DNA of 64,000 bases. Origin: a virus (Duplodnaviria; Caudoviricetes). The stretch is from positions 916 through 64,915 of IMG/VR virus record IMGVR_UViG_3300049982_000332; one strand, written 5' to 3'. The notes below the pieces were generated by a model. It worked only from the letters and a program-made list of their open reading frames with translations. It searched no databases and was not told where the DNA came from. This document shows positions 36,128-64,000 of this stretch, piece by piece. Each line of letters starts with the position of its first letter. The stretch's first letter is position 1. Made by a program: the position numbers and the translations under genes.

Positions 36128-36497
36128 TTACACCCCGGTCTTCCCGCTCGCACCGGGCCCGTTCACCTCGCAGGCGTCGGGCACCATCACCGGCGGCGAC
36201 CTGGTCGCGGTGTCCGGTTCGGGCACCGTCGCCTCCGCAGCCGCCGGCGCATCCGCGATCGGCGTCGCCGCGCACGACGCGGTCACCGGCCAGAAGGTGG
36301 CCGTGCACCCGCTCAAGCAGGTCCACGAGACGCTCGCCGGCGTTGCCGGTGTCACGGCCGGGAACCCGCTGAAGGTGGGTGCCAGCCCGAGCAAGCTCGT
36401 TTTGTGGGTGACCGGCACCGACGGCGCGGAGAAGTGGGTCGGCGTCGCGCTGACCACGGCCGCCGCGGACGCCACTCTTCGCTGGATTGGACGCTGA
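36120..36497 (+). CDS. Capsid cement/decoration protein
   Basis: ITGGDLVAV...GVAAHDAVTG DUF2190-like pattern. Confidence 0.75.
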   Translation: MADYTPVFPLAPGPFTSQASGTITGGDLVAVSGSGTVASAAAGASAIGVAAHDAVTGQKVAVHPLKQVHETLAGVAGVTAGNPLKVGASPSKLVLWVTGTDGAEKWVGVALTTAAADATLRWIGR

Positions 36498-36498
36498 C

Positions 36499-41757: not shown

Positions 41758-44700
41758 GTGTCCATGGCCCCCCTGGCCGAGGCGTTCGTCCGCGTCCGCG
41801 CAGACACCACCGGCGTCCGCGACGACGTGCGCAACGAGTTCGGCCGGTCCGGAGGCGACGCGGGCGACGAGTTCAGCACCCGCTTCTCCAAGGACGCGGA
41901 AAGTCGTATCCGCTCCGAGCGCGGCCGGTTCACAGCCGAAGGCCGAAACCTCGGGGAAGGCCTCGGCGACGGCGCCGGGAACGGCATGGCGGAGACGCTC
42001 CGCCGTAGCCTGCCCAGTCTCCTGGCCGGGCTGACCCCCAGTTTCCGCACCATGTCGCTCACCCTGTTCTCGGGGCTCACCTCCGGCGCGGCATCGGCGG
42101 CATCCGGGCTCGGCACCCTGGCTGTGACCATGGGGTCGCTGGCCACCAGCGCCGTGCTGACGGCCGCGAAACTGTCGCTTCTGGCCGGCGCCGCGGCCAC
42201 TGCGGCCATGCAAGCAGGCCAGCTCGTGGTGGCTCTTGCCCCAGCTGCGGGCGCCCTGGCCGCGCTGCCCGGCGGGGTGCTGCTCGGCGCCGCCGCGCTG
42301 GGCACCCTCAAGCTGGCGCTGAACGGCGTCGGCGACGCCTTCGCCGCCGCCATTTCCGGCGACATGGACAAGTTCCTGGCGGCCGCCGCCGGGCTGGGCC
42401 CCGCGGCCTCCAACGTGGCCTACGAGCTTTTCCAGATGTCCGGGGCTTTTCAGGGCCTCAAGTTCGCCGCTCAGGACGCCCTGTTCGGGCCGCTGGTCGG
42501 ACAAATGTGGTCGCTGCTGCCCGTTCTCAACGCCCTGACCGACGGGGTGGAGAGTGTGGCCGGCCAGTTCGGCCAGGCCGCGCTGAAGGTCCTGGAGTTC
42601 GCCCGGTCATCGGAGTCGATCTGGGCCATCCGCAGCGTGTTCACCTCCCTGCACGACGCGGTGGCCGCCTTCACCCCCGCCCTGACGCCCCTGCTCAACG
42701 GCTTCAGAGACCTCGGCGTGGTCGGCGCCGGGTGGCTGGCCGACCTGGCGCCCGGGATCGCCGCGGTGGCCCAGCGGTTCGGCCTGTTCATGTACAACGC
42801 CGCCGCTTCCGGCAAGGCGCTGGAGTGGATGGACAACGCGCTGGCGGTGTTCAAGCAGCTCGGGTCGATCGTCGGCGATCTCGGCGGCATCCTCAAGTCG
42901 GTCTTCACCGCCATGCAGACCTCGGGCGCGAGCGCGCTCGGCGTCATAGGCCAGCTGCTCGACGGGATGAACCAGTTCCTCAAGTCGGCGCAAGGCCAGT
43001 CGACGCTGGTCGCGGTGTTCACCGCGCTCAGCGCCATCGCCAAATCGTTCCTGCCCGTGATCACAGCCGTCGTCGGCGTCGTCGCCCAACTCGCCCCCGT
43101 CGTCGCACAGCTGGCTCAAATGGTCGGCCCGGTGCTCACCGCGGCGATCACCGCGCTCGGTCCTGCCGTCGCGGCGATCGGCCCGGGGATGATCGCGGTG
43201 TTCGCCGGCATCGGCGACGCGGTCAAGGCCCTGGCGCCCGCTCTGCAGCCGCTCGGCCAGACCATCGGTTCGGCGTTCGCGACGCTGAGGCCGCTGATCG
43301 CCGCCATCGGCCCGGCCATCGCCGCACTCATGCCCGGATTGCAGGCGTTCATCGGTGCCGTGGCCACGGGTTTCGCGTCGCTCGCACCGGCTCTGCTGCC
43401 TGTGGGGCAGGCCATAGGGCAGACGTTCGCCGCTCTGGCGCCCATCTTCGGCCCCATCGGTCGGGCCATCGCAGGCGTGGTGACCGCCGTGGCGCCGCTG
43501 CTGCCCGTGCTCGGCCAGCTGGTCGCGCTCATCGCCACGAGCCTCGCGTCCGGCGTGACCGCGATCCTGCCGTCGCTCCAGGTGATGGTCCGCGTCTTCG
43601 GCGAAATTCTGCAGTCCCTGTCCCCGCTGCTGCCGGTGATCGTTCAACTGGCGACGGTGATCGCCTCCAGCCTCGCCGCCGGGATGCAAGCCCTGCTCGG
43701 CCCCGTCCAGGTCCTGGTCGGCGGGCTGGCCTCGATGCTCACCGCGCTCACGCCGATCATCCCGCTGCTGATCGGCTTGGCCACGACGCTCATCAACGCC
43801 CTGGTGCCGGCGCTGGCTCCGTTGCTGCCGCAGATCGCCACGCTGGTCACCCAGCTGATTCAGGGCCTGGTCCCGGCGATCACACCGCTGATCCCGATCA
43901 TCACGCAGATCGCCGGGATCATCGCGCAAAACTTCGTGACCGGCCTCGCGTTGCTGGTGCAGGCCGTCGTGCCGCTGCTGCCGATGCTGTCGGAGCTCGC
44001 GCAAACCATCGGGTTGGCGCTGGTGAAGTACCTGCAGGAGCTCTCGCCGCTGCTGCCCGGCCTGATCGGCGCGTTCCTGTCGCTGATCACAGCGCTCACG
44101 CCGATCCTGCCGGTGGTGGGTGAGCTCGTGAGAGCGCTGCTGCCGGTCATGGCCGAGTGGATCAAGGTGTTGGCGCCGGCCGTGGTCCAGCTGGCAGGCG
44201 CCGCCGTCCAGCTCATCACCGCGATGACGCCGATGCTGCCGATGGTCGCCGAGCTGATCAGGCTGTGGTCGCCGGTCCAGGTCATGTTCGTGAAACTCGT
44301 CGGCGTGATCCTCGGGGTGGTCATCCCGGCCATCACGACCTTCGCCGCCGACATCTCCGACAAGATCCACACCATTGTCGGCTGGTTCCAATGGCTGTAC
44401 GACATGCTGATCGGGCACTCGATCATCCCGGATCTGGTCAACGGGATCACCCGGTGGCTGTCGGACCTGCCCGCCAAGTTCGCCGAATGGTTCGGCAAGG
44501 CCAAAGACTGGGCGGTGCAGAAGTTCAACGAGCTCGTCGACTGGGTGAGAGGCGTCCCCAACCAGATCGTTACGGCGCTCGGTGGCCTCGGGGACACCCT
44601 GGTCACCGCTGGGAAGAACCTGATCACCGGCCTGTGGAACGGCGTGGTGAGCATGTGGCAGTGGTTCAAGGACCAGATCTACAGCTTCTTCTCCGGGATC

Positions 44701-45075
44701 ATGCCCGACTGGGTGAAGCAGGCCCTCGGCATTTCCTCCCCGTCGAAGGTGTTCGCGGCACTCGGCCGCCAGTTGCCCGCCGGTCTGGCCATGGGCATGG
44801 ACGGCGCACAGGGCTTGGTGAAGGCGGCGGCCGAGCGGATGGCCGGCGCCGCAGCCAAGTTCGCCGTGCCGTCGCTATCCCCATCCCTGACGGTAGGCGG
44901 CCAAACGCTCGCCGGGTCGGCCGCCGCAGCCGGCGGCACGTCTGGGGTGACCATCCAGGGTGACCTGGTGGTCCCCATCACCGGCGTCCTGGACTTCACC
45001 AAACCCGACGCGATCCGCGCCCTCATGGTCCGCCTCCGCGAGGAGCTCGCCAACCTGGAGCGTGAGTACGCGTGA
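41758..45075 (+). CDS. Tape measure protein
   Basis: 1105 aa; LAEAFVRVRAD N-terminus; amphipathic repeats. Confidence 0.95.
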   Translation: MSMAPLAEAFVRVRADTTGVRDDVRNEFGRSGGDAGDEFSTRFSKDAESRIRSERGRFTAEGRNLGEGLGDGAGNGMAETLRRSLPSLLAGLTPSFRTMSLTLFSGLTSGAASAASGLGTLAVTMGSLATSAVLTAAKLSLLAGAAATAAMQAGQLVVALAPAAGALAALPGGVLLGAAALGTLKLALNGVGDAFAAAISGDMDKFLAAAAGLGPAASNVAYELFQMSGAFQGLKFAAQDALFGPLVGQMWSLLPVLNALTDGVESVAGQFGQAALKVLEFARSSESIWAIRSVFTSLHDAVAAFTPALTPLLNGFRDLGVVGAGWLADLAPGIAAVAQRFGLFMYNAAASGKALEWMDNALAVFKQLGSIVGDLGGILKSVFTAMQTSGASALGVIGQLLDGMNQFLKSAQGQSTLVAVFTALSAIAKSFLPVITAVVGVVAQLAPVVAQLAQMVGPVLTAAITALGPAVAAIGPGMIAVFAGIGDAVKALAPALQPLGQTIGSAFATLRPLIAAIGPAIAALMPGLQAFIGAVATGFASLAPALLPVGQAIGQTFAALAPIFGPIGRAIAGVVTAVAPLLPVLGQLVALIATSLASGVTAILPSLQVMVRVFGEILQSLSPLLPVIVQLATVIASSLAAGMQALLGPVQVLVGGLASMLTALTPIIPLLIGLATTLINALVPALAPLLPQIATLVTQLIQGLVPAITPLIPIITQIAGIIAQNFVTGLALLVQAVVPLLPMLSELAQTIGLALVKYLQELSPLLPGLIGAFLSLITALTPILPVVGELVRALLPVMAEWIKVLAPAVVQLAGAAVQLITAMTPMLPMVAELIRLWSPVQVMFVKLVGVILGVVIPAITTFAADISDKIHTIVGWFQWLYDMLIGHSIIPDLVNGITRWLSDLPAKFAEWFGKAKDWAVQKFNELVDWVRGVPNQIVTALGGLGDTLVTAGKNLITGLWNGVVSMWQWFKDQIYSFFSGIMPDWVKQALGISSPSKVFAALGRQLPAGLAMGMDGAQGLVKAAAERMAGAAAKFAVPSLSPSLTVGGQTLAGSAAAAGGTSGVTIQGDLVVPITGVLDFTKPDAIRALMVRLREELANLEREYA

Positions 45076-50482: not shown

Positions 50483-50640
50483 CCGAACCACAACCACCCG
50501 GCAACGAGGCGGACCTGGTCCACGAGGGCGTCGACCGTCGCCCCTGGGAGGCCACCGAGGCCGACGAGGAGGCCGTGCTGCGCGAGCTGTACGGGCCGCC
50601 GGACGCGAACGGGATCTACCGGGGCGAGGGGGCACAGTGA
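50479..50640 (+). CDS. Small acidic protein coupled to endolysin (not in ORF track)
   Basis: GTGA coupling at both ends. Confidence 0.55.
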   Translation: MTEPQPPGNEADLVHEGVDRRPWEATEADEEAVLRELYGPPDANGIYRGEGAQ

Positions 50641-51377
50641 GCGCGTCAGCGATGCTCGCCGCGGCACGCAAATCCCTGGGGCTGGCCGGCAGGCCCAACT
50701 ACATCACCCGCGAGTACGCGTCCCGGAACGGCAACGTCTTCCTGGCCGCGCCATGGTGCGACCAGGCGGTGACGTACTGGGCCCGGCACAGCGGCAACGC
50801 CGCGGCGGTCCTTCCGAAGGGGGACCGGGCGTTCACAGTGTGGCATGCCGGGGACGGGCAGGCGCTGGGCCGATGGCACGCCGGGACCGTGGAGAACATC
50901 AAGGCGCACGCCACCCCCGGGTGCCCGATCTTCTTCGACTGGGACGGCAGCAACACCATCGGGGCGATCGACCACATCGGGGTCATCGAGAAGGTCCTGT
51001 CGGATGGCCGGGTGCAGACCATCGAGGCCAACACCGGGGACGCGGTCAAACGGCGTGTCCGCTCGGCCAGCGTCATCGCCGGCTTCTGGAACCCCGACTA
51101 CGGCGACGTGACCGCCGCCGCCGCGCACGCGAAAACCTGGATGGAGGAGCTCGTGGACAAGCTGCCCTTGTTGAAGCCGGGCGCGAAGGGCTGGGCGGTG
51201 AAGCGGGCGTTCTACCTGCTGATCGCCAACGGCTTCGCCCTGGACCCGAAGGTCGTGAAGGACACCGAGTACACCAAGGCGATGCAGGCGAAGGTCGCCG
51301 AGTTCCAGAAGGCCAAGAAGTTGAAGGCCGATAAAGAGATCGGCTCCCTGACGTGGACGGCCCTGATCGTTCCCTGA
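50637..51377 (+). CDS. Endolysin: CHAP domain plus peptidoglycan-binding domain
   Basis: PWCDQAV (Cys), DHIGVIE (His), IEANT; C-terminal LKPGAKG..VK...FQ..KKL.AD.EIG..TW.AL. Confidence 0.88.
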   Translation: MSASAMLAAARKSLGLAGRPNYITREYASRNGNVFLAAPWCDQAVTYWARHSGNAAAVLPKGDRAFTVWHAGDGQALGRWHAGTVENIKAHATPGCPIFFDWDGSNTIGAIDHIGVIEKVLSDGRVQTIEANTGDAVKRRVRSASVIAGFWNPDYGDVTAAAAHAKTWMEELVDKLPLLKPGAKGWAVKRAFYLLIANGFALDPKVVKDTEYTKAMQAKVAEFQKAKKLKADKEIGSLTWTALIVP

Positions 51378-52994: not shown

Positions 52995-53173
52995 TCCTCG
53001 TGTTCGCGGGCGAGCCGTTCGGCCTCGGCGTGGAGCGCCCACGTCAGGAGCAAGGCCAGGCGCAGATCAGGGTCTTCGGGAGCGTGCATGGTGGTGCCTC
53101 CACCAAATGGGACGCACCGGAAACCCGGGAAGTTGCCCGCCCGAACCGAACCGCTATCGCAGGGCACGACAAC

Positions 53174-53201
53174 GCCCCGCCACCCGGAGCGGTGACGGGG
53201 C
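53174..53201 (-). terminator. Hairpin ending the leftward transfer/resolvase transcript
   Basis: GCCCCG(C/T)CACC stem downstream of resolvase stop. Confidence 0.55.
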
Positions 53202-53285
53202 TGTACGAAAACGCTCGGCTGCGGACTCCCGGACACCTGCCGTACCTGTCTTGCGGCGCGACCCGTGCGGAACCCGTGACCGGAA

Positions 53286-53882
53286 TCAAGCTCGCACCGA
53301 ACCCGCAGGCGACGGCATGCGAGACTCCCGGTTGGCCAGCTCCCGGTACACGGTCGCCCTCGAGGTCCCCAGCGTCTCGGCGACCTCGGCCACCGTGTGC
53401 TCGCGCGAGTCGTACATCCGGTACAGCGTCAGCACCTGCCGCGGGGTGAGCGACTTGCGCCGGCCGCCGTGACGGCCGCGAGCTCGCGCCGCGGCGAGAC
53501 CCGCCTGCGTCCGTTCGATGATGCGGTCCCGCTCGAACTCGGCCAGCGCGGCGAAGATGTGGAACACCAGCTTCCCGGTCGGGGTCGCGGTGTCGATGCC
53601 CTCGGTGAGACTGCGGAAGTGCACCCCCCGCTCGCGGAGCATCCCGACCGTGTCGATGAGGTGCTGCATCGACCGGCCGAGCCGGTCGAGCTTCCACACC
53701 ACCAGGGTGTCGCCGGGCCGGATCTGGTCGAGCAGGTTGTCCAGGTCCGGGCGCGCGGTCTTCGCCCCGGAGGCCACGTCGCTGAACGTCTTGTAGCACC
53801 CGGCCGCGTCCAGCGCGTCATGCTGCAGCGCCAGCTCTTGGTCAGGGGTGCTGACGCGCGCGTAGCCGAGCAGGTGGCCCAT
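53286..53882 (-). CDS. Serine resolvase/invertase (Tn3/Hin-type) with C-terminal HTH
   Basis: GYARVST..Q, VVWKLDRLGRS, AEFERDRIIERTQAGL.AARARG..GGR, GTSRATVYR. Confidence 0.95.
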   Translation of the reverse strand: MGHLLGYARVSTPDQELALQHDALDAAGCYKTFSDVASGAKTARPDLDNLLDQIRPGDTLVVWKLDRLGRSMQHLIDTVGMLRERGVHFRSLTEGIDTATPTGKLVFHIFAALAEFERDRIIERTQAGLAAARARGRHGGRRKSLTPRQVLTLYRMYDSREHTVAEVAETLGTSRATVYRELANRESRMPSPAGSVRA

Positions 53883-53999
53883 GGTGCTCCTTCGGGTGGG
53901 TTGGCCGACGTTGATTCCCGACGCGGGATACCGACGGCGGGGTCTTGCGGATTCTCTACGGGATCAGGGGCGTCGTCAGGGGATCGTTTGCCGACAGCG

Positions 54000-54308
54000 T
54001 CAAATCGCTGCGCCGACGGCGACCTCGAGGGAGCGGGCCGCCTGCGCCGGGTGGACCGGGATCACCGCCACCTCATCCCCCGGGCGGGCGCCGTACCCGG
54101 AGTCGCCCATGCCGTCGGCGATGACGAGCGCCTCCCGCGGGCCGGGGTCGACGGCCCAGCACGCCTCGACGATGAGCGGCCACTGACCGGCTACCTTCGT
54201 CGGCGTGGTGGCGGGGCGGGTGTAGAGCAGGCGCACCAGGCGGAAGCGGTTGCCGGACTCGAAGCGCATCACCAGTTCGTCGACCGTCATCACGATCGTG
54301 TCGGTCAT
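54000..54308 (-). CDS. Hypothetical protein
   Basis: Overlaps upstream stop; start moved to 54308. Confidence 0.55.
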   Translation of the reverse strand: MTDTIVMTVDELVMRFESGNRFRLVRLLYTRPATTPTKVAGQWPLIVEACWAVDPGPREALVIADGMGDSGYGARPGDEVAVIPVHPAQAARSLEVAVGAAI

Positions 54309-54532
54309 GACGATCCACCCAGGATCCGGCGCACGGCTCGCGCACGCGGTGTGCCCGCGGCGGCCTGCATGATCTCCTCGGCCCGCCCCGGCGGGAGGGT
54401 GCGGTGGTGGTGCCACTCGTCGAGTTCGTCGCTGGCCGCCGCGTACGCCTCATCGGTGGTGTCGCGGCAGCGGGCCTCGAGGTGGTCGATGATGAACGCT
54501 TCGCCGGCGTCAACGCCGGGGCGGGTTGCCAT
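54305..54532 (-). CDS. Hypothetical protein
   Basis: AAGGAG SD. Confidence 0.65.
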   Translation of the reverse strand: MATRPGVDAGEAFIIDHLEARCRDTTDEAYAAASDELDEWHHHRTLPPGRAEEIMQAAAGTPRARAVRRILGGSS

Positions 54533-54604
54533 GGTTCGCTCCTTGGGTCTTGAGGGAAGGGTGTCCCGCCCGCGGGGAAGACGGACGGGACGCGGGGGGA
54601 TGGG

Positions 54605-54781
54605 TCAGTCCTCGTAGTCGCCGCGGTTCAACTTGCTCGTGATGAGGTCGGCGTGGGCCTCGTACTGGCGGGCTGCGACGCGGTCACCCTTCTTGGCCGC
54701 TTTGGCGGCCTTGCCCTTGATCTCTCGCAGGGTCTTCTGGGCTTCGCTCTTCTTGGGGAGTCCGGACTGGAACAGCGGCAT
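54605..54781 (-). CDS. Small basic protein (58 aa, not in ORF track)
   Basis: AAGGAG SD; MPLFQSGLPKKSEAQK... Confidence 0.7.
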   Translation of the reverse strand: MPLFQSGLPKKSEAQKTLREIKGKAAKAAKKGDRVAARQYEAHADLITSKLNRGDYED

Positions 54782-54873
54782 GTTGTTCTCCTTCTAGGTG
54801 GGTTGTTCGTAGCGTCCTCCTCTGGGCCCGAGCGGGCGAGGCGGGACGCGGGGGATGGGTCAGGCGCGGGTGG

Positions 54874-54996
54874 TCATTCGTCGCCTGCGTCGACGTCGGT
54901 GACCACGATGGTGGCGCCGAGGCCGACGACGCAGCCGTCCATGACGAGCTCGCCGCCGAGGTTCACGACTCCGCCGTTGTTCACGATCCTGGGCAT
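54874..54996 (-). CDS. Small protein (40 aa)
   Basis: AAGGAG SD; MPRIVNNGGVVNLGG... Confidence 0.55.
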   Translation of the reverse strand: MPRIVNNGGVVNLGGELVMDGCVVGLGATIVVTDVDAGDE

Positions 54997-55082
54997 TCGG
55001 TTCTCCTTCAGGTTGGTGGAGCAGACGCTCCGGGCACCCGCGCGACCTTCCGGCCGGGCGAGTATCCGCAACAGCCGCACCG

Positions 55083-55313
55083 TCAGCGGGTCAGACCGGC
55101 CGCGTCACGCCAGCGCTGACCGGCACGCCCGTCCAAGGCGGTCGCCCGGTTGCTGACCTTCCGCAGGAACTCGGCGGCATCGACGTGCATCTGCGCCGCG
55201 GCGGCCAGGGCGTGCAGGCGCGGCCAGTCCTGGTCGTGGTACGCCTTCGGCATGTCGTCCATGTACGCCTGCATCGCGTCCAGGTGGTCGACGCAGTCGG
55301 GAAGCTTCGGCAT
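55083..55313 (-). CDS. Small helical protein
   Basis: GGAG SD; directly after translocase. Confidence 0.6.
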   Translation of the reverse strand: MPKLPDCVDHLDAMQAYMDDMPKAYHDQDWPRLHALAAAAQMHVDAAEFLRKVSNRATALDGRAGQRWRDAAGLTR

Positions 55314-55327
55314 GGCGTCTCCAGAGT

Positions 55328-57274
55328 TCACGGGGCGATGAGCTGGTAGAGGTCGCCGCGCTGCTGCACGACGTCGGCGCGGATCAGCGTGCGGAGCGCG
55401 GCGGGGACTTCGGCGAGCTGGACGTCGCCGATGGCACGCTGGACGGCCACGCAGACGGTGCCGACCTCCAGCGGTTTGCCGGCCGAGGCGAGGACCTGCT
55501 CGACGGCGGCCTGCACGTCGCCGGAGGTGTGGCGTGGCGTGCTCGGCTGGGCCGCGGTCTCGGGCGTGCGGCCGCGGGCGCTCTTGCGGCGCCACTCCTC
55601 CATGTAGCCGAGGGTCCGGTCGCCGAGCAGGCCGGCGGCCGGGGTGGAGGCGATGCCGAACGCGTCGCGGACCGGCATCATGCGCAGCGTCGCGGCGGGT
55701 CGCCGGTCGACGCCGGCGGTGTAGCCCAGGCCGTGGGTCTTGGAGCCGTCGCGGAAGTACTCGGGCAGTTTGGACGGGTCGGCGGGCAGGCCGACCATCT
55801 GGTGGTCGGTGCTGGACCCGGTGCGCAGCGCGGTGAGGCTGCCGCCGGAGATCAGGTTGGAGCGGAACGACTGGGAGTTGGCGAAGTTGTCCAAGCCGAG
55901 GTTCTGGTTGACCACCAGCAGGCTGCCGCCCGCCTTGCGCCAGGTGCGGACGCCGGTGGACAGCAATTCGAAGCCGAGTTTGCCGTACGGCCCGTCGAGG
56001 AACAGTTTCAGCTCCTCCGCGCACACCATGAGCATGCTCATGCCGCCCATGTCGGCATCGCCGGGCAGCAGGAACGGCTTGCCGCGTCGTTCCCGGCCTT
56101 GGGTGTCGGCCCAGGGGGCGTGGGCGACGTAGTCGGCGCGGCGAACCATGACGTAGTCGAGCATCTGCAGGTAGGCGTAGGTGGCCTCGTGGCCCTCGCC
56201 GTAGATCGGGGTGCGGCCCGACCAGTCCGGCTGGGAGCTGCCCGACTGCGGGTCCAGCAGCGCCGTGGCCACCAGCGGGCAGCGGTGGGCCAGCGCCAGC
56301 AGCCCGGAGACGTGGTTCGACTTACCGGACCCGGTGTCGCCTGCGATGACGCCCATCTGCGCCCCGCTGGACGTGGTCCAGAACTGCCGGTGGGCTGGGG
56401 CCAGGTCGAAGTAACGGCCGATCTGCGCGATGCCGGTCTGCGGGTCGATGGCCGCGCCGGAGTCCTCCAGCCATGCCGTGGCTGTCAGGTTCTGGTCGGA
56501 GCGGATCACGGTGACCCGCGCCCGGGAGGCGTCGCCGTCGTCGACCTCTTCGACGGCGACTTGGGATGGGCGCACACGGTTGGCCGAGGCGATCGTCTCC
56601 ATGGCGTCGGCCGCCGACATCTTGCTGTACTTGGTGGGGCCCGGCTCGCCGACGATGATCCCGGTGTAGCCGTCGGGGACGGGCTCCACCTCGGCCAGGT
56701 GGGTCAGCTTGTACGCGGGGTTGTTGGGCACGACCCGCTCGGCCCACAGCGCCGCCTCGCGGCTGACCCTGGCCGAGGGTGCCTCGATCTCCCGCTGCGG
56801 GGCGCGGGCCGGGCGTCGCAGGACCCGCACCCAGAACGGGACCGAGGCGGCGAGCCCGACCGCCCACAACACCAGGACCACCCAGCCGTGTGGGCCGAGC
56901 AGGCTGGCCGTGGTCATCCACGCCGCCCCGGCGCCGACCGGAACCCACGGAAGGTCCCGGCCCGCGCGCTCGGCCCGGCCGAGCACCACCGCGGCTGCGG
57001 CGAGGATCAGCCCGGCGCGGATCAGCGGGTGCAGGCCCAACGCGAACAGCCACGCCGCGGCGTGAAGGGCGGCCAGCCACGCCACCGGCACCAGCAGGAC
57101 GGCTTTGCCCCGCTCGTGGTGGGCGATCTGCCGGGTCATGCGCCGGGCCGTCTCCGTGTGCCTGGCACGTCGGACTTCGGCCGCGGCTTCCGCCTTGACG
57201 CGGGCATCGCGCACCTCATCGGCCAGCACGCGGGCCGCGTACTGCTCGATGAAGTCGGTGTCGTGGCTGGACAT
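55328..57274 (-). CDS. traB: FtsK/SpoIIIE-family DNA translocase, TraB/Tra-like conjugation protein
   Basis: N-terminal TM cluster, Walker A GDTGSGKS, Walker B-like VCAEE, RKAG, C-terminal winged-helix-like domain; spd-like gene context. Confidence 0.8.
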   Translation of the reverse strand: MSSHDTDFIEQYAARVLADEVRDARVKAEAAAEVRRARHTETARRMTRQIAHHERGKAVLLVPVAWLAALHAAAWLFALGLHPLIRAGLILAAAAVVLGRAERAGRDLPWVPVGAGAAWMTTASLLGPHGWVVLVLWAVGLAASVPFWVRVLRRPARAPQREIEAPSARVSREAALWAERVVPNNPAYKLTHLAEVEPVPDGYTGIIVGEPGPTKYSKMSAADAMETIASANRVRPSQVAVEEVDDGDASRARVTVIRSDQNLTATAWLEDSGAAIDPQTGIAQIGRYFDLAPAHRQFWTTSSGAQMGVIAGDTGSGKSNHVSGLLALAHRCPLVATALLDPQSGSSQPDWSGRTPIYGEGHEATYAYLQMLDYVMVRRADYVAHAPWADTQGRERRGKPFLLPGDADMGGMSMLMVCAEELKLFLDGPYGKLGFELLSTGVRTWRKAGGSLLVVNQNLGLDNFANSQSFRSNLISGGSLTALRTGSSTDHQMVGLPADPSKLPEYFRDGSKTHGLGYTAGVDRRPAATLRMMPVRDAFGIASTPAAGLLGDRTLGYMEEWRRKSARGRTPETAAQPSTPRHTSGDVQAAVEQVLASAGKPLEVGTVCVAVQRAIGDVQLAEVPAALRTLIRADVVQQRGDLYQLIAP

Positions 57275-57286
57275 GGGTCGTCTCTC

Positions 57287-57979
57287 CTAGTTGTTGGCGA
57301 CTTCGAGCGCCCGCGCGGCGGTCCGCTGGGCCACCCCGGCCGCCTGGTTGAGCAGGTCCTGCATCACGGCGGAGTTGCCGATCAGATCGGAGTGCCCGGC
57401 GAGCACGTCCCGCATGGACGCGGCGAGGTTCTCGATGCCGGCCATTCGGGACTGCAGTTCGCCTGCCAGGTCGGAGTGGGCGGCGGCGTAGCTGGTGAGG
57501 CCTGCGGCTTCGGTTTGCACTTCGGGTTCCTCCTGATGGATTTCCGGCTCGGGTTCGGGCCGGGTGTTCTCGGGTTCCGGCCGGGGCTCAGGCTCCGGCT
57601 CGGGTCTGGGGGCGGACTCCGGTTCCGGGTCGTCGGCGATGACCTCGGCGTCGATCGGCTGGGCGTCCTGCCACTCGCGGTACCGCTGCCGTCCCGCCTG
57701 CCACGCTTCGCGGCGGATCCGGTTGGCCGCGGCGACCGTCTTGCCGGCCCCGTACGCCCCGGCCAGCGCCCACGACAACCACCGGCGCGGGTTCTTCCAC
57801 GACGGGTCACCCCGGCGCAGGCGTTCCTGGGCGAAGGTGTAGCCGTCGCGGAACTCGCGCACCGCCTGGGCTTTGCCCGCCTCCCACGCTCCGCCGGCGA
57901 ACGCGCGGGCGTCCGGACGGCGCCACAAGATGCCGCAGATGATCGCGGCGACGACCAGGGCGAACAGCAGCGCGGCCAT
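57287..57979 (-). CDS. Membrane-anchored protein with PE-rich linker and helical C-terminus (TraA/Spd-like position)
   Basis: TGATG coupling; N-terminal TM; directly upstream of traB-like gene. Confidence 0.7.
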   Translation of the reverse strand: MAALLFALVVAAIICGILWRRPDARAFAGGAWEAGKAQAVREFRDGYTFAQERLRRGDPSWKNPRRWLSWALAGAYGAGKTVAAANRIRREAWQAGRQRYREWQDAQPIDAEVIADDPEPESAPRPEPEPEPRPEPENTRPEPEPEIHQEEPEVQTEAAGLTSYAAAHSDLAGELQSRMAGIENLAASMRDVLAGHSDLIGNSAVMQDLLNQAAGVAQRTAARALEVANN

Positions 57980-58377
57980 CACCGGCTCACACGGGAGCTG
58001 ATGGTGTCGGCGTTGGTCTGGATCTGGTCGCCGATGTAGTTGAACGTCTGCGAACCGGTCAGCAGCAGCACCGCGATCAGCGAGGGGAGCGCGAACACGA
58101 ACCACGGGTAGTCGATCTTCCCGTCGCTGAGGTCGGCGACGACACCGATGCCGAACCCCGCGGTCAGAACCAGCGCGACGCCTCCGACGATGAGGACCAG
58201 GGTGAGGTTGCCGGCGAGCAGACCGGTCAGCCAGAAGGCGATGCCGACCAGGCCGAGCCCGGCGAGCACCATGAGGATCCCCTGGAGGATCGACCATTTG
58301 CGGCGCTTCTTGAGCTGCACCGCGGGATACAGGAAGACGGCAGTGACCAGCAGCCCCCCGAAGATGATTCCGATCAT
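57979..58377 (-). CDS. Four-TM membrane protein (Spd-like)
   Basis: Strongly hydrophobic; in transfer operon. Confidence 0.75.
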   Translation of the reverse strand: MIGIIFGGLLVTAVFLYPAVQLKKRRKWSILQGILMVLAGLGLVGIAFWLTGLLAGNLTLVLIVGGVALVLTAGFGIGVVADLSDGKIDYPWFVFALPSLIAVLLLTGSQTFNYIGDQIQTNADTISSRVSR

Positions 58378-58389
58378 GGCTGTGACCTT

Positions 58390-58848
58390 TCACATGAACA
58401 GGCTGATGACGAAGACGAGCAGGGCGCTCCCGGCCAGCAAGGACGGGTAGCTGATGACCAGCAGCAGCAGATGCGCGGCGGCGGTGACGGCGATGACGGG
58501 CGCCCCGTACAGGGCGTAGGGGACGCGCAGGATCAGGGCGTCGCGGATGTAGGGCTTGGGGTCGGTCCAGTACTGGCGGGCCAGGTCGGCGACCGGGCGG
58601 GGCCGCATGCCGAACGCGCCGTCTCCGATCCACGCCGCACGCCAGGTGGAGGTGAGACGCTCCTGCGCCGGCCGCAGCCGGTCGAACAGCCCCAGCCGTT
58701 CCAGAGCCTCCTCGGCCGTCTCGATGGCCGGATCCGATGCAGGGGGCGTCTCGACGGCGCCGCCCCTGAACGGCACCACGACATCGCTGGGCGCCGATTC
58801 CTCGTCGGCGGGGAGCTGTAGCTTGAACAGCCGGTCAGGCGCTGACAC
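58390..58848 (-). CDS. Membrane protein with two C-terminal TM segments (Spd-like)
   Basis: Hydrophobic C-terminus; in transfer operon. Confidence 0.7.
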   Translation of the reverse strand: MSAPDRLFKLQLPADEESAPSDVVVPFRGGAVETPPASDPAIETAEEALERLGLFDRLRPAQERLTSTWRAAWIGDGAFGMRPRPVADLARQYWTDPKPYIRDALILRVPYALYGAPVIAVTAAAHLLLLVISYPSLLAGSALLVFVISLFM

Positions 58849-59107
58849 GGGACCTGCCTCCTCTCTGCCCCATCAACTGGGCGTGGTGCTTGTCGTTGAG
58901 TTCGCCTGCGAAGTCGATGAGCTGCTGGGCGAGGGCGACCCCCTGCTCGTGCGCCCTGGCGGGGTCCCGGCGGTCCAGCGACTTGAGCTCGGCCGTCACC
59001 CACCAGGCCGCCCACCAGAACCGCAGGACGCCGTTGCGCTGGGCGCGGATGCGGTTCAGGTGGAAGGCCTTGCGGGTCTGGGGGCCGGTCTGACGCTTCT
59101 CGGACAA
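58835..59107 (-). CDS. Hypothetical protein
   Basis: GAGGAG SD before TTG. Confidence 0.65.
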   Translation of the reverse strand: MSEKRQTGPQTRKAFHLNRIRAQRNGVLRFWWAAWWVTAELKSLDRRDPARAHEQGVALAQQLIDFAGELNDKHHAQLMGQRGGRSRVSA

Positions 59108-59233
59108 CGACGCTCCTCGGTTACGGAAAGTGGTGACGGTGGCGGCTGGTTATACTCGCGCGCGCGTTACGCTCCGGTGCGCGTTACGTAACGCATCTGC
59201 GCGTTGGAGGCGCTCGGAGGCGTCCGGCGGCCA

Positions 59234-59692
59234 TCACGCACCTCCACGGACGATCAGCACGGTCGACACGAGGGAGACGGCCAGCGCGCCGAGCAGCAGA
59301 TCCACGGCGACCTGGATGACCCGGTGTTTGGTGCGGGCCAGCCTCGACAGGACGACCAGCTCGGCGATCCGGTCCCGCTCGTATTCGACGGCGGGCCGCC
59401 CGGCCAGTAGGTCGGGGGAGGTGTGGGCGTAGACGACCCACCCGGCGCCCTCGCCGCGCCGGGGGAGGGAGGGGCGGACGGCGTACAGGAGTACGGCGAC
59501 GCCGGCGACGAGCAGGATGACGGCCGCCCACAGCGTGTACTGCGCCGGGGATGGCAGGTGGGGGGTGCCGAGGGCGGCGGCTGCGGCGCCGACGCTGGCC
59601 GCGGTCCCGGCGATACCGAGCAGGGTCGCTGCTTTGGTGTCGGCGCGGCCCAGTTCGGTGCGAACCGAGGCGAGCTCGTGGGGGACGTCCAT
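59234..59692 (-). CDS. DUF5706/Pycsar-effector-like three-TM membrane protein
   Basis: ELGRADTKAATLL...TM...AVRPSL...LSRLARTKHR...TM pattern. Confidence 0.75.
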   Translation of the reverse strand: MDVPHELASVRTELGRADTKAATLLGIAGTAASVGAAAAALGTPHLPSPAQYTLWAAVILLVAGVAVLLYAVRPSLPRRGEGAGWVVYAHTSPDLLAGRPAVEYERDRIAELVVLSRLARTKHRVIQVAVDLLLGALAVSLVSTVLIVRGGA

Positions 59693-59835
59693 CAGGTGGT
59701 CCTCCTGCAGGGGATGAGGGCGAACACCCGGACACACTCGGCGCAGTTGCGGGCAGAACCGGAGCCGTGGATGGGGCAGCGGGGGGTGTTCTCGGTGGTG
59801 TGGCGGCAGCCGCAGAGGGGGCACTGGTAGCGCAT
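59692..59835 (-). CDS. Small Cys-rich zinc-finger protein (47 aa)
   Basis: TGATG coupling at both ends; CPLCGC...C.H...CAEC. Confidence 0.65.
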   Translation of the reverse strand: MRYQCPLCGCRHTTENTPRCPIHGSGSARNCAECVRVFALIPCRRTT

Positions 59836-60836
59836 CAGGAGTCGCCTCCGGCCATGAACCTCTGGACCTCGCGCGCCTTGTCGACGCCGACACCGAGGGC
59901 CGTACGGATCTTGTGGACGCCCGGATTTTGGGTCAGCGCACCGGCGGCGATCATGTCGCGGACGTGGTCGGCGAGGACCTGTACCGGGGCTGTACTGAGG
60001 GTGTACCGGTCCGGGCCGTTGTCCCTGTACGCGGGGTGTACCGGGGGTGTACCGAAGGGTGTACTGCGCCACGGCACCGGAAGGTCGGCGATGATCTTCC
60101 AGAGGGTGGGCAGAACCCACACGGCGAGCACCGCGGCGACTGGGCCGAGGGAGTGCACGATCAGGCCGAGCGGGTCGAACGGGAGGACGAACGCTGGCCA
60201 GCAGTTCAGGGTCAACGTGAGGCCGAGGAGAACCAGCTCGACGCGGAACAGGCGCCGGCCCTCGTGGCTTTTGCGGTCCACGACCTTGCCACGGATCGCC
60301 GAGTACGCCTGCACGCCGACGGCGGCGAGCAGGGGGAGCGACAGAACGGCTTCGACACCGTAGGCGGCCCACCAGCCCAGGTCGGCCTGCTCGATGTCGA
60401 GGGCTTTGACGACGCTGGCCTGCACGCCGATGGAGGAGACCGCGAGGGCGATGCCCGCGGCGGCCATCGTCATGCGGGTGGTGATGCGCCGCACCTGGGC
60501 GTCGCGGTAGGCGAGCGCCGCGGGGTGCTGGGCGAGCTCGTGCAGTCGGGCGGCTTCCCAGGTGCGGCGGCGCAGCTTGCGGACCTTGGTGGTGTCGAGG
60601 GTGAACGGCGTCTCGTCGTCCTGCAGCTCGGCCAGAAGGTGCGCCTCGGCGACCTCCTCGCGTAGGGCGCGGACGCGTTTGGTCTCGCCGTCCATCTCGG
60701 GCTGCTCACGCACCGCGGGGAGGGAGGCAGACGTTACGGCGGCGGCTTCGGCCAGGTGGCCTTCGATCGCTGCCAGGCCCTGCTCGACCTCCCCGGGGGT
60801 GGGCTCGGGCTGCGGCTCTGGGGTGTCGCACGTCAT
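59835..60836 (-). CDS. DUF2637/SpdB-like multi-TM protein with C-terminal HTH
   Basis: ATGA coupling at 60836; four TM segments; PGVHKIRTALGVG.DKAREV HTH-like end. Confidence 0.7.
   Translation of the reverse strand: MTCDTPEPQPEPTPGEVEQGLAAIEGHLAEAAAVTSASLPAVREQPEMDGETKRVRALREEVAEAHLLAELQDDETPFTLDTTKVRKLRRRTWEAARLHELAQHPAALAYRDAQVRRITTRMTMAAAGIALAVSSIGVQASVVKALDIEQADLGWWAAYGVEAVLSLPLLAAVGVQAYSAIRGKVVDRKSHEGRRLFRVELVLLGLTLTLNCWPAFVLPFDPLGLIVHSLGPVAAVLAVWVLPTLWKIIADLPVPWRSTPFGTPPVHPAYRDNGPDRYTLSTAPVQVLADHVRDMIAAGALTQNPGVHKIRTALGVGVDKAREVQRFMAGGDS
59980..60064 (-). repeat. 11-bp-phased GTACACCC/GTACA array, candidate clt (TraB recognition sequences)
   Basis: Seven TGTAC cores at 59980, 59991, 60002, 60026, 60037, 60048 and 60060; four are perfect GGGTGTAC. 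Confidence 0.7.
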
Positions 60837-61036
60837 GCGATCTGCTCCGCTTCGATCTCGCGGCATGCCCGCAACAGGGGAAGGTGGTCGGCGAGGAAGT
60901 CCAGCACGGCGCGCTCCTGCTCCTCGGTCAGGTTGTCGAGAAACTCGCAGAACTGGGCGCGAGGGTTGTCGCTGGAGAGGACCAGGGACACGACCCTTCG
61001 ACCGTCCGCCTGGTCTTCTGGCTGCGGGGCGAACAT
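60833..61036 (-). CDS. Small acidic protein
   Basis: TGATG coupling. Confidence 0.6.
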   Translation of the reverse strand: MFAPQPEDQADGRRVVSLVLSSDNPRAQFCEFLDNLTEEQERAVLDFLADHLPLLRACREIEAEQIA

Positions 61037-61269
61037 CAGGACCTCGCCCGGTCAGGCAGGTCGATGGGCGCATCGGCGCGGGTTGTGAGGACAACAAGGA
61101 CATCAAGGAAGCGTTCAAAGGCCGCGATCTTCCGGGCCTGAACCGCGCGGTTTCGCTTCGAGCGGTCGCGCTTGCACGCCTTGCACTCCGAACAGCCCGT
61201 GTAGAAGGCGCTCTGCTCCCAGGGGCGCGAGCACGTGCGGCACGGGTCCTTCACTGGCGAACTCGACAT
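61036..61269 (-). CDS. Zinc-finger protein, first gene of leftward operon
   Basis: AGGAG SD before ATG 61269; CRTC...CSECKAC. Confidence 0.65.
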   Translation of the reverse strand: MSSSPVKDPCRTCSRPWEQSAFYTGCSECKACKRDRSKRNRAVQARKIAAFERFLDVLVVLTTRADAPIDLPDRARS

Positions 61270-61294
61270 CCCATCTCCTGACCATGAACGTTCC

Positions 61295-61336
61295 TTCATC
61301 TATGCGCATCTTCACGCATCAAGACGCATCCGTCAA
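61295..61336 (-). promoter_or_regulatory. Transfer-operon promoter with phased operator repeats
   Basis: TTGACG-17-GAAGAT on minus strand; CGCATC at 61305, 61315 and 61325 (10-bp period). Confidence 0.7.
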
Positions 61337-61482
61337 TGGTCAGTCAGGGGACAGGAGGGCGGTGCGCTTGCATAGACGCTGGTCAAGCGGAGATCGGGAA
61401 CGTTCTTGACCGCAATGCCGGATCGGGAGATCCTTGCAAGTGCACGCCTACGTGCGAATACTTACGCCTAAGGAGTACGCCC

Positions 61483-61707
61483 ATGGAGCGGTTCCGGAAG
61501 CTAGCTGGATCCCCCGGCAGCGACGGCCTCAACACCTGCCCGACCATCATCGAGGTGGTCGACAGCGAGGACCTCATCATCGTTCAAGGTCAACAGCTCG
61601 ACGCGGAGACGCGACGCAAGCTGAACATCCCGGACGGTGAAGACGCCGTCGTCGTACCGAAGGATCTCTACCTCCGAGGGGCGCACAGGCTGACGGAGGA
61701 TGAATGA
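61483..61707 (+). CDS. Small acidic partner protein of DUF6879 gene
   Basis: AAGGAG SD; CPTI...IIVQG...IPDGEDAVVVP. Confidence 0.75.
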   Translation: MERFRKLAGSPGSDGLNTCPTIIEVVDSEDLIIVQGQQLDAETRRKLNIPDGEDAVVVPKDLYLRGAHRLTEDE

Positions 61708-62231
61708 CGCCAGGAGATCTCTACCGCACGTGCCGAGCCTCGGCCTACCGGCTTGAGGTTCGGCAGCACTACATCGTCTCTGGGGACGCGGAGCGTCAGC
61801 GCGCCTTCCGCGCCGGGGAGCCGCTGCCGCCGCCACGGCAAGACAAGCAGGACGACCTTCGCCTCGTCGCCGGGCTACGGCAGGCGGGCAAGCAGATCGG
61901 CCGGGTGCACGTCGTATCCTGGCCGCTGTCCGACTACGTCCGCTACGAGCTCGCCGTGTACTCCGAGAACGTGGCGGCCGGCGAAGATGTGGCCATCGCC
62001 GATGTGTCGGCTCACCCTGACCTGGCCAGGCTGGACACGGACTTCGCCATCTTCGACGGCGAGACCGACGAACCCAGCGTGATCCTCTTCGACTACTCGC
62101 CAGAGGGTCGGCTGCTCGGCTATGGGCTTACCCGGGATCCTGGGGTCGTCAATCGCTGCTTGCGGCAGTACCAACTCGCCCGCGAGCATGCGGTCGCCCT
62201 GCAGGAGTTCACGGCGGCGCACCAGCAATGA
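61704..62231 (+). CDS. DUF6879-like protein
   Basis: SAYRLEVRQHY...RVHVVSWPLSDYVRYEL...GEDV...DFAIFD. Confidence 0.75.
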   Translation: MTPGDLYRTCRASAYRLEVRQHYIVSGDAERQRAFRAGEPLPPPRQDKQDDLRLVAGLRQAGKQIGRVHVVSWPLSDYVRYELAVYSENVAAGEDVAIADVSAHPDLARLDTDFAIFDGETDEPSVILFDYSPEGRLLGYGLTRDPGVVNRCLRQYQLAREHAVALQEFTAAHQQ

Positions 62232-63091
62232 GCGCCTTTCAGGACCGGCAGCGCGAGGAGCTCGCCGACGCGCTCAAACGGCTGCGAATCGCGTCGGGCC
62301 TGACCGGGTACCAGCTCGCCGAGCGGCTCAGCGTCGACCAAAGCACGGTCTCGAAGATCGAACGCAACAGGCAGCGGATCTCCCTCGCTCAGGTGGAATT
62401 GTGGTGCGACGCCACCGGCGCGCCCGCGGAACGTCGCAGTGAACTCCTGGCGCTGGCCGAGAACGTGCTCATGCGGCCCTCATCGTGGAACGCTGTGTCA
62501 ACTACGGGCTCGACGAATTTCCAGAGCGAGACGCAGCAGATGGAAGCCGAAGCCGGCGCGCTCAGCTTCTACCAGCCGGCCGCCATCCCGGGCCTGCTGC
62601 AGACGGCGACGTACGCCCGCCAGATCTTCTCCTCGGGGCCAGATGGGGTCCCGGCTGACGTGGCGGAGCGAGTCCTGGGGCGCTTGGAGCGTCAGCGCAT
62701 CCTCTACGACGAGCGGAAGCGGCTGCGGTTCGTCGTGCCGGAGGCCGTTCTCCGCTGGCCTTTCGGCCCGGTCGACGAGCACGCCGAGCAACTGGACCGG
62801 CTCGGCGAGATCCTCGGCCGGCCCAACGTCGATCTCCGGTTCCTGCCCATGGAGTCGAACCCGTACTGGCGGCTCGGCGGGTTCGTCCTGTTCGAGGACT
62901 TCGACGACCGGCCGCCGCTGGTGCACCTGGAACTGCTGAGCGGGCCGATCAACGTTGATGATCCGGATCAGGTCGGCATGTATCAACGGGTGTTCGGCAA
63001 GCTATTCGACGGGGCGGCGTCGGGTGACGCGGCCAAGGCGCTGCTGGCCCGCGTCATCGAGGACATGCGGCGAGGTAAACCCGAACTGTAG
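62228..63091 (+). CDS. XRE HTH plus DUF5753 transcriptional regulator (Scr1/WhiJ-like)
   Basis: LKRLRIASGLTGYQLA...STVSKIE; IPGLLQTATYARQIF...RLERQRIL. Confidence 0.9.
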   Translation: MSAFQDRQREELADALKRLRIASGLTGYQLAERLSVDQSTVSKIERNRQRISLAQVELWCDATGAPAERRSELLALAENVLMRPSSWNAVSTTGSTNFQSETQQMEAEAGALSFYQPAAIPGLLQTATYARQIFSSGPDGVPADVAERVLGRLERQRILYDERKRLRFVVPEAVLRWPFGPVDEHAEQLDRLGEILGRPNVDLRFLPMESNPYWRLGGFVLFEDFDDRPPLVHLELLSGPINVDDPDQVGMYQRVFGKLFDGAASGDAAKALLARVIEDMRRGKPEL

Positions 63092-63111
63092 AAGCCGCGT
63101 CTCACTTACCG

Positions 63112-63147
63112 GCGCCCCGTACCCCACCTTCCTGGGGTGCGGGGCGC
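63112..63147. terminator. Bidirectional hairpin between convergent genes
   Basis: GCGCCCCGTACCCCA-ccttcc-TGGGGTGCGGGGCGC. Confidence 0.75.
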
Positions 63148-63156
63148 TCGCACGTC

Positions 63157-63738
63157 CTACGGCAGGTCCACGGCTGTGATCTTCCAGGCGCACGGCGAGG
63201 TGACCTCGAGGTGGAAGGTGCCGGCCGAGTAGAGCGGCGTCTTGTCCTCCCCCTTGTCTGCGAGCACGTTGACCGCGACATCAACCATGTTGTTCTGCGC
63301 GTCTTGGATGGCGACGATGAAATTGCCTTTGATGCCGAAGTTCGCGCAGTCGAAGGTGTAGCGCAGCTCCCACGTCGCGTCGGCGGTGAACTGTGCGGTG
63401 TTCTTGGTGCCCGACCCCTCGGCGGATATCAGGACGACGGGCTCGGCCGGCTTGGACTGCTCCGTCTGCTGGGCGGGCTGCTCCGCGGGCTGCTCGGCCG
63501 CCTTGGGCTGATGCGAGGTGCGGGTCTCGGCTGGCGCGGCCACGGGCTGGGGGGTTCCGCTGCTGCCGATGACGGCGACGGCGGCTGTGCAACTGAGCAG
63601 AATCGCCAGGGGAAGGCCGACCACGAAGATCCAGAACAGCGGGCTCTTGCCATTCTTGGGCGGCGGGGAAGGATAGCCATACCCGGGAGGCGGGCCGTAG
63701 TGGGGTGGCTGACCGGGAGGACCTTGCTGGTACGCCAT
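63157..63738 (-). CDS. Membrane-anchored extracellular protein (Pro-rich N-terminus, TM, beta domain)
   Basis: PPG/YG-rich cytoplasmic tail, one TM, QP linker. Confidence 0.75.
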   Translation of the reverse strand: MAYQQGPPGQPPHYGPPPGYGYPSPPPKNGKSPLFWIFVVGLPLAILLSCTAAVAVIGSSGTPQPVAAPAETRTSHQPKAAEQPAEQPAQQTEQSKPAEPVVLISAEGSGTKNTAQFTADATWELRYTFDCANFGIKGNFIVAIQDAQNNMVDVAVNVLADKGEDKTPLYSAGTFHLEVTSPCAWKITAVDLP

Positions 63739-63910
63739 GGCTGACTCCGGGGGTGGCTGGCTGTGTCGTACCGTTGACGGATAGTGCGCCCCTGCGGGTT
63801 ACCGTGGTCACGGTCGGAAATCGGATCGTTAACGTTCCACTCCCGGGCAGTGTTGGTGGTATCCGTACATAGAGTGACCTAAATGTCAAGAACACACCTA
63901 TACTCCTGGT

Positions 63911-64000
63911 ATGCCTAAAGCTGCGATCTACTGTCGGCTCAGCTACGCCCCTGACGGCTCGGTGGAGAAGGTGGAACGCCAGGAAGCCGACTGCCGCCGG
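63911..64000 (+). CDS. int: Large serine integrase, N-terminal fragment (runs off window)
   Basis: MPKAAIYCRLS......VERQEADCR catalytic N-terminal motif. Confidence 0.8.
   Translation, partial: MPKAAIYCRLSYAPDGSVEKVERQEADCRR

Follow-up and report, generated by a model that had tools for sequence, protein, structure and literature searches.

The window, that is, the whole stretch of 64,000 nt analysed here, belongs to a provirus record of IMG/VR and carries tailed-phage genes (terminase, portal, protease, major head protein, tape measure and endolysin) in the region from 1 to 52 kb. A Tra/Spd-like operon has the lysis cassette on one side and, on the other, a serine integrase gene (63911-64000) that is cut by the end of the record. 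Within the codons of the first gene of this operon lies an array of short, regularly spaced words. The array and a TraB-like gene share the minus-strand operon, with the array 2.7 kb upstream of traB (Table 1).

Table 1. The word array, the gene that carries it and the further genes of the operon (positions in the window).
Feature	Position	Strand	Remarks
SpdB/DUF2637-like membrane protein gene, 333 aa	59835-60836	-	GC3 frame; >120 homologues
Array of seven 10-bp words	59977-60066	-	Consensus C(G/A)GTACA(C/G)CC on the coding strand
Central unit GTACAGGGACAAC	60018-60030	-	Codes for a Y-R-x-N motif
Disordered-linker codons carrying the array	59985-60083	-	Residues about 252-284, from the AF2 model and the codon alignment
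Codons of the C-terminal three-helix HTH, proposed array reader	59853-59984	-	Residues 285-328
Five genes between the array gene and the TraB-like gene	57287-59692	-	Operon
PycTM-like gene	59234-59692	-	First of the five intervening genes
Four further intervening genes	58835-59107, 58390-58779, 57979-58377, 57287-57982	-	Also conserved in L001, together with the TraB orthologues
TraB-like membrane-anchored P-loop ATPase, 648 aa	55328-57274	-	Walker A GDTGSGKS; C-terminal winged-helix-like tail
Small gene, 82 aa	55083-55331	-	Overlaps the TraB stop codon

The earlier note had described seven TGTAC cores at defined spacings together with four perfect 8-mers, and all of these elements were found again. 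On the plus strand, TGTAC starts at 59980, 59991, 60002, 60026, 60037, 60048 and 60060, with start-to-start steps of 11, 11, 24, 11, 11 and 12 bp (59980-60064); read 5' to 3' on the minus strand, the GTAC starts are separated by 12, 11, 11, 24, 11 and 11 bp. Exact copies of GGGTGTAC are located at 59999, 60034, 60045 and 60057, and two further copies occur in the window outside of the array (13894 on the minus strand and 40894 on the plus strand), compared with 1.33 expected. The statistics of word density are based on the full IMG/VR provirus record of 64,915 bp. Elsewhere in this record, no 90-bp segment contains more than two TGTAC or more than four GTAC, and at least seven GTAC in a segment of this length have a Poisson probability of 1.2e-8 per segment. 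The longer word GG[CG]TGTAC[CT]G is present in six copies in the whole record, five of which are inside the array. Across the 39 non-central units of seven loci, the C at position -2 and GTAC are invariant, and R is kept at position -1. The central unit is conserved differently, as TACAG(G/C)GNAAAC at the DNA level, in most of the family (about 45 loci); its arginine is always encoded by the rare codon AGG, and where serine replaces arginine, the codon is AGC. An Rfam search over 53000-64000 matched no RNA family, and no promoter-like or terminator-like sites were found close to the array. Very probably, the array is bound by a protein, and it clearly illustrates how a DNA code with a regulatory or structural function can be written over the codons of a disordered linker. 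Such overprinted arrays in linker codons escape gene-centred annotation.

The further claim that the encoded peptide is not repetitive, and that it is the DNA on which selection acts, was corroborated by the reading frames, the codon choice and the recoding trials. Read in order, the words of the array are split into codons as AGT-ACA, GGT-ACA, GTA-CAC, G-TAC, G-TAC, AGT-ACA and GTA-CAG, so that three codon phases are used. Nine rare codons are present in the array, with AGT at 3.5%, ACA at 4.1%, GGT at 7.5%, GTA at 1.5% and AGG at 4.4%. In 200,000 trials of synonymous recoding of the 36-residue segment with the codon usage of the same record, the mean number of GTAC was 0.94 and the maximum was 5, and the observed number of 7 was reached in none of the 200,000 recodings. 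When the codons of seven loci were aligned, the third-position identity of the array region (0.81-0.88) was the highest of the gene, whereas its amino-acid identity (0.65-0.71) is below average; in the HTH codons, the third-position identity is back down to 0.56-0.67. Selection thus acts on the array as DNA, a conclusion in which our confidence is very high.

The 333-aa protein encoded by the array-bearing gene is a polytopic membrane protein in the traB operon of an actinomycete mobile element. In its AF2 model, which was built from an alignment of 32 sequences, helices at the N-terminus are followed by four long membrane helices (residues 105-251), and a disordered linker (pLDDT below 50 at residues 257-279) leads to a C-terminal HTH. 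The array codes for this linker, immediately before the HTH. When the C-terminal domain was modelled alone, a pLDDT of 91.6 was obtained. The best Foldseek matches of the HTH, which is small and lacks a wing, were GntR-type wHTH DNA-binding domains (probability 0.9, TM 0.6-0.7); the E value of about 0.3 is not significant, as expected for a query of only 51 residues. Pfam gave hints only, at E values of about 0.02-0.03, to FtsK_gamma and HTH_23 in 2 of 28 members. Homology of the HTH to FtsK-gamma (E about 0.03, 2 of 28 members) was set aside as an unproven resemblance. A PDB profile search with the HTH yielded spurious matches to armadillo repeats.

The assignment of the whole protein draws on several lines. 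The Pfam families DUF2637 (PF10935) and SpdB_N (PF27080) did not match it at E <= 0.01, and similarity to SpdA was not detected. Look-alike clusters of the ESM Atlas pointed to DUF2637 (0.91) and SpdB_N (0.77), which is to be taken as a lead only, and UniRef gives some of the homologues the name DUF2637 or 'conjugal transfer protein'. Its gene is syntenic with TraB-like genes in AICEs, in plasmids (pRL1 and Nonomuraea p1) and in prophages.

The 648-aa TraB-like protein of the same operon has visible hydrophobic helices at its N-terminus. It matched the NCBIfam model plasmid_TraB with an E value of 2.8e-8, but with 33 bits compared with a cut-off of 800, and Pfam FtsK_SpoIIIE with an E value of 0.14. 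In an hhalign comparison with TraB-like proteins that bear FtsK_SpoIIIE, a probability of 88% and an E value of 2.7e-6 were obtained over 287 columns. A PDB sequence search with this protein returned no match. The gene tables of the loci L067 to L070 contain ORFs that match in size the four intervening genes of 57287-59107.

The array is conserved among relatives. Seven relatives with 73-95% protein identity keep the cores and their spacing, five of them with all seven cores and two lacking one unit. The GTAC spacing of 12, 11, 11, 24, 11 and 11 bp is intact in a Sphaerisporangium prophage (L042), a Streptosporangium AICE (L043, identical to L002), Microbispora (L044), a metagenome contig (L047) and Spongiactinospora (L003), the last with words of the form GTACG(G/A)CC. 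The two loci L048 and L071, which are 96.8% identical, are each without exactly one unit. In the locus L004, the HTH is seemingly frameshifted, and six GTAC words are still present. All array-bearing loci belong to one host clade, the Streptosporangiaceae.

Between clades, the geometry of the array is conserved while the word differs. The loci L005 (identical to L046), L055 and L056 carry GAGTCGGGGG at offsets 0, 12, 58 and 70, compared with offsets of 0, 12, 23, [34], 58, 69 and 80 in the window. Two reading frames are used for the word in these loci (SRGA and ESGV), and in L005 it consists mostly of common codons, with the geometry unchanged. Words of the form GGTA(A/C)CCCC were found in L038 and L029. 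If a protein and its DNA site co-evolved, the word would be expected to switch in this way while the geometry stays fixed. In the loci L066 and L069, the first gene is an unrelated DUF2637-like gene, the linker codons of which contain 8-10 GCGACCG/CGGTCGC words that are 11-13 bp apart. Many distant members of the family contain weak in-frame C(C/T)TAC repeats with a spacing of 12 bp, which could partly reflect a peptide motif.

The earlier note had taken the array for the clt of the element, composed of TraB recognition sequences to which the winged helix at the C-terminal end of the TraB-like protein would bind. One part of this proposal holds: a real, DNA-selected array of phased words is present in one operon with a TraB-like ATPase. 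The winged helix of TraB as the reader is not supported, and we consider this reading improbable. The traB operons of pSVH1, pJV1 and pWTY27 indeed contain direct repeats of about 8-10 bp in cis (PMC4447253, PMC3583192), and a wHTH-like tail is conserved at the C-terminus of the window's TraB type. Furthermore, no other candidate clt was seen near TraB in the window's element: no repeat array follows TraB there, k-mer scans revealed no other array in the rest of its module or in that of the closest whole-module relative, L001, and L001 likewise has GTAC words. However, L042, L043 and L044 keep the identical array together with TraB-like proteins that are only about 20% identical to that of the window and that end in a different, DUF3631-like C-terminal domain. 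Conversely, TraB orthologues with 57-70% identity keep the C-terminal wHTH, including a putative recognition helix E[IV]PAALRxL, yet their array differs or is absent. The earlier note had named, as an outcome that would refute its proposal, the absence of the array from homologous operons with a near-identical winged helix, and the TraB reading fails on this point: the orthologous TraB operons contain GCGACCG arrays (L066 and L069) or no GTAC array (L067, with the central GTAC only). Other TraB types have variable repeats of their own right after traB while the linker array is unchanged, for example CCGCACA in ten copies in L046, TGTCAC in seven copies in L045, CCGCTACC in L042, GTCTAGTT in L043 and CTAACT in L044. 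The CCGCACA of L046 is the clt word of pJV1 (PMC3583192). A word common to TraB was also sought among six loci of the window's TraB type, and this search returned GC-rich noise only. The window array hence is a repeat cluster in cis, as a TraB recognition array would be, but its word does not co-vary with the cognate TraB. The array follows the membrane-protein gene, independent of the TraB type. A clt-like function with a reader other than TraB is possible, and the array may also be used twice, with TraB among the users.

Another protein might read the array as an operator or recruitment site, for example a GntR repressor of the KorA/TraR type, an Xis/BldC-like HTH_17 protein or a conserved host factor. 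The task of this reader would be to control the tra operon or to organise the DNA, and an HTH_17 candidate would multimerise on direct repeats. The TraR operator of pSVH1, TTTGGTACACAACT, includes GGTACAC (PMC4447253), GntR proteins are encoded in L043 and L046, HTH_17 proteins are encoded upstream in L042 and L043, and all array-bearing loci share one host clade. Against this, no such accessory gene is common to all array-bearing loci, no promoter-like site is close by, and one host factor would hardly account for words that switch from clade to clade; we therefore regard this reading as unlikely, although less so than recognition by TraB. A GntR/KorA operator was rejected for the window, as the provirus record is without any GntR gene, and an Xis/BldC-like reader was rejected because the small upstream ORFs gave no match to HTH_17 or any other Pfam DNA-binding family. 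Two recombination sites were also considered and dismissed. A res site does not fit the resolvases, of which one is shared by the window and L044 (90%), L042 has one of its own and the array-bearing L043 has none; attP arm sites do not fit the integrases of L042 and L043, which are 5-6 kb distant. Finally, the array might not be a binding site at all, but a by-product of a peptide repeat, of tandem DNA prone to slippage, of a recombination junction or of a rare-codon pause that separates the membrane domain from the tail. The clustering of rare codons between these two domains, the indels of unit length in L071 and L048, the in-frame xTGx peptide repeats of distant relatives and the variation among loci of the modules downstream of the gene would all be compatible with this. 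Nevertheless, it is very improbable. The use of three frames and the non-repetitive peptide speak against a peptide repeat, and a rare-codon pause needs no exact 10-bp word at an 11-bp phase and is at odds with the mostly common codons that encode GAGTCGGGGG at the same geometry in L005. Peptide repeats and rare-codon pausing were thus rejected on account of the frame changes and the exactness of the words. The peak of third-position identity is local and falls again in the HTH codons, so that it does not represent a (recent) recombination tract or junction.

The candidate that we favour is the C-terminal HTH encoded by the array-bearing gene itself. The membrane-protein gene is present in every array-bearing locus, and a BLAST comparison of the window's element with five loci with GTAC arrays revealed no other called ORF common to all of them. 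As the sole gene common to the array loci, it makes its own HTH the most economical predicted reader. From comparative data, we infer the identity of the binder, and oligomeric binding and a role of the array in transfer are proposed in addition; that the array serves as a docking site for the HTH of the same gene, with a clt-like role, has in our judgement about an even chance of being correct. Since the array and the HTH reside in one gene and are inherited together, the fact that they co-vary does not count as independent evidence. The six words that persist beside the seemingly frameshifted HTH of L004 speak against this reading, as do the small size of the HTH, its missing wing and its non-significant fold matches.

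The mechanism that we propose would operate as follows. Seven helically phased binding words and a conserved central core would be overprinted on the linker codons of the first gene of a Tra/Spd-type dsDNA-transfer operon, and the most likely reader would be the three-helix HTH in which the product of the same gene ends. This protein is predicted to be a polytopic, SpdB/DUF2637-like and probably oligomeric membrane protein. A phasing of about 11 bp makes successive words point to nearly the same side of the helix, which would suit a membrane-anchored oligomer. Several tails could then bind words spaced by about 11 bp and thereby hold the dsDNA of the element at the membrane beside the TraB-like pump. 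The array would thus act like a clt, serving in cis for transfer or for spreading within the mycelium and perhaps also for stability, with the specificity supplied by the Spd-like protein rather than by TraB.

Parts of this arrangement are familiar from the conjugative plasmids of Streptomyces. TraB binds to clt loci that consist of direct 8-bp repeats (PMC4447253, PMC4170104, PMC12857230), and the words differ, being the 8-bp TRS in pSVH1, nine copies of CCGCACA[C/G][C/G] in pJV1 and four copies of TGACACC in pWTY27 (PMC4447253, PMC3583192). A clt word is specific to its cognate TraB, which recognises it through helix alpha3 of the wHTH. Like a Streptomyces clt, the window array is composed of short direct repeats in cis in or near a traB operon, it occurs together with an FtsK-like dsDNA pump, and its word varies by element. 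Unlike a clt, it lies inside the codons of another gene at a distance from traB and does not co-vary with the TraB type; in addition, its relatives have a separate set of repeats right after traB, and its probable reader is an Spd-like membrane protein.

The placement of the array has a parallel in pIJ101, where SpdA2 binds to the palindromic sps within its own coding region and plasmid stability is affected (Thoma et al. 2014, PMC4170104). In the window, too, the motif is located inside the gene of its candidate reader, a protein of a spread/stability module, and in both cases a nucleotide motif constrains the peptide. The sps, however, is a 12-bp palindrome in one to three copies that is bound by the small soluble SpdA2, whereas the window contains seven phased direct words with a 4-bp palindromic core, and the candidate reader is the 333-aa polytopic protein with its C-terminal HTH. 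The combination of a 12-bp palindrome with a protein of the SpdA family, which is characteristic of sps, is absent from the window array. A third parallel concerns the protein. The membrane protein SpdB2 of pSVH1 forms oligomers, interacts with TraB and shows non-specific binding to dsDNA (Tiffert 2007, as cited in PMC4170104; Thoma 2015, PMC4447253). The window protein is likewise an integral membrane protein with an N-terminal helical/coiled part and a C-terminal soluble part, encoded together with traB. The specific DNA binding proposed for it differs from the non-specific binding reported for SpdB2, and the likeness of the two comes from language-model and structure look-alikes only. Altogether, the feature in the window combines clt-like phased direct repeats, an sps-like placement in the gene of its probable reader and an SpdB2-like membrane protein. 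We found no description of arrays in the linker codons of Spd-like genes in the searchable literature.

Phased direct repeats are also used in plasmid partition. In parC of R1, a type II partition site, two blocks of direct iterons of about 11 bp flank a core, and the cooperative binding of ParR results in a superhelical scaffold. The window array is similar in having two blocks of repeats of about 11 bp around a central core, but it lies in a coding region and in the context of a transfer operon, and ParM and ParR genes are absent.

The literature recognises as an open question how Spd membrane proteins and TraB cooperate in intramycelial spreading and in dsDNA conjugation of the Streptomyces type (PMC12857230, PMC4447253). 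A candidate sequence-specific docking array that is independent of the TraB type offers a testable handle on it, in the form of a 90-bp site and a candidate reader domain of 50 residues. Natural specificity variants are available for swaps, namely GTACACCC, GTACGGCC, GAGTCGGGGG and GCGACCG. More generally, a widespread class of actinomycete Tra/Spd modules, some of them borne by tailed prophages, might have delegated DNA recognition from TraB to a membrane adaptor with a docking array in its own gene, the words of which switch like specificity alleles, and might thereby give temperate phages a lysis-free, conjugation-like route. We put this forward as a speculative generalisation, conceivable but doubtful.

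As the module is located inside a tailed prophage, spreading in a plasmid-like manner may also be open to some actinophages; if the reading of the protein as a membrane adaptor is true, temperate phages could move between hyphal compartments or cells without lysis, in a conjugation-like way. A search of the phage collection returned no DNA or protein match to the module, and the matches in the plasmid collection were restricted to Nonomuraea p1 and Streptomyces pRL1. The Sphaerisporangium prophage L042 has the same layout as the window, with a different TraB type. Therefore, the module appears to be part of this prophage lineage and not a chance neighbour.

The GTAC array of the membrane-protein gene is not constant in length among relatives. 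In L071, a copy of this gene with 96.8% identity from a sequencing-run assembly, the array (2659-2730) is short of exactly one 12-nt unit, and that of the relative L048 has six units; thus, array copy number varies by whole units. In a third relative, L004, the C-terminal HTH of the homologue can be read correctly only in another frame (AIRAALRGATDTARDV, 8712-8837), which points to a sequencing error or a frameshift; this homologue nevertheless retains six GTAC words.

Linker arrays also occur in a second family. At L066 and L069, orthologues of the window's TraB adjoin arrays of 8-10 GCGACCG/CGGTCGC words, in both orientations and 11-13 bp apart, in linker codons of the first gene. This gene is likewise DUF2637-like, but it comes from an unrelated family whose C-terminal DNA-binding domain is a different one.

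A distinct repeat set lies immediately downstream of each TraB-like gene in L042-L046 (a Sphaerisporangium prophage, a Streptosporangium AICE, a Microbispora locus and two further loci, respectively). The repeats of L042 and L044 have a common spacing (7-8, 55-57, 19) but different words, and the word of L046 is that of the pJV1 clt. These sets are probably canonical clt sites or operators. Many AICE-like loci additionally carry triplets of tandem 8-9-bp words, with about 66 bp between them and often as inverted pairs, several kb away from the membrane-protein gene; these could serve as iterons or as arm sites for a recombinase.

Repeat arrays and genes of the window and the compared loci
Feature	Locus	Position	Strand	Remark
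GCGACCG/CGGTCGC array	L066	2013-2135		
GCGACCG/CGGTCGC array	L069	818-903		
CCGCACA x10	L046	12342-12581		directly after TraB-like gene
TGTCAC x7	L045	12383-12506		same
CCGCTACC	L042	14187-14275		same
GTCTAGTT	L043	13402-13500		same
CTAACT	L044	4905-5004		same
Tandem-word triplets	L011	16606-16830		
Tandem-word triplets	L025	2651-2880		
Tandem-word triplets	L030	14156-14366		
Tandem-word triplets	L031	15984-16193		
Tandem-word triplets	L032	14194-14293		
Terminase	window	30697-32247		
Portal	window	32408-33763		
Major head protein	window	36487-37467		
Tape measure	window	41758-45075		
Endolysin	window	50637-51377		
Small serine resolvase	window	53286-53882	-	90% identity to resolvase of L044
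PycTM-like (Pycsar effector transmembrane) protein	window	59234-59692	-	Pfam E 7.7e-10; inside tra operon

The record is a tailed-phage provirus (phage genes in 1-52000). Its plasmid/AICE-type Tra/Spd operon (in the region 53286-64000) separates the lysis cassette from the integrase, an arrangement that also occurs, with another type of TraB, in the Sphaerisporangium prophage L042. The record breaks off in the N-terminal part of a serine recombinase/integrase (MPKAAIYCRLSY..., 63911-64000); it therefore has an artificial provirus boundary and lacks the attachment sites and any other genes beyond it.

The PycTM-like gene has counterparts in L068 and the Streptomyces plasmid pRL1 (L064), and its product may be a spread protein instead of a defence effector. 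Because the window element and the Microbispora locus differ outside the small serine resolvase, the sequence identity of the latter points to a recently exchanged cassette.
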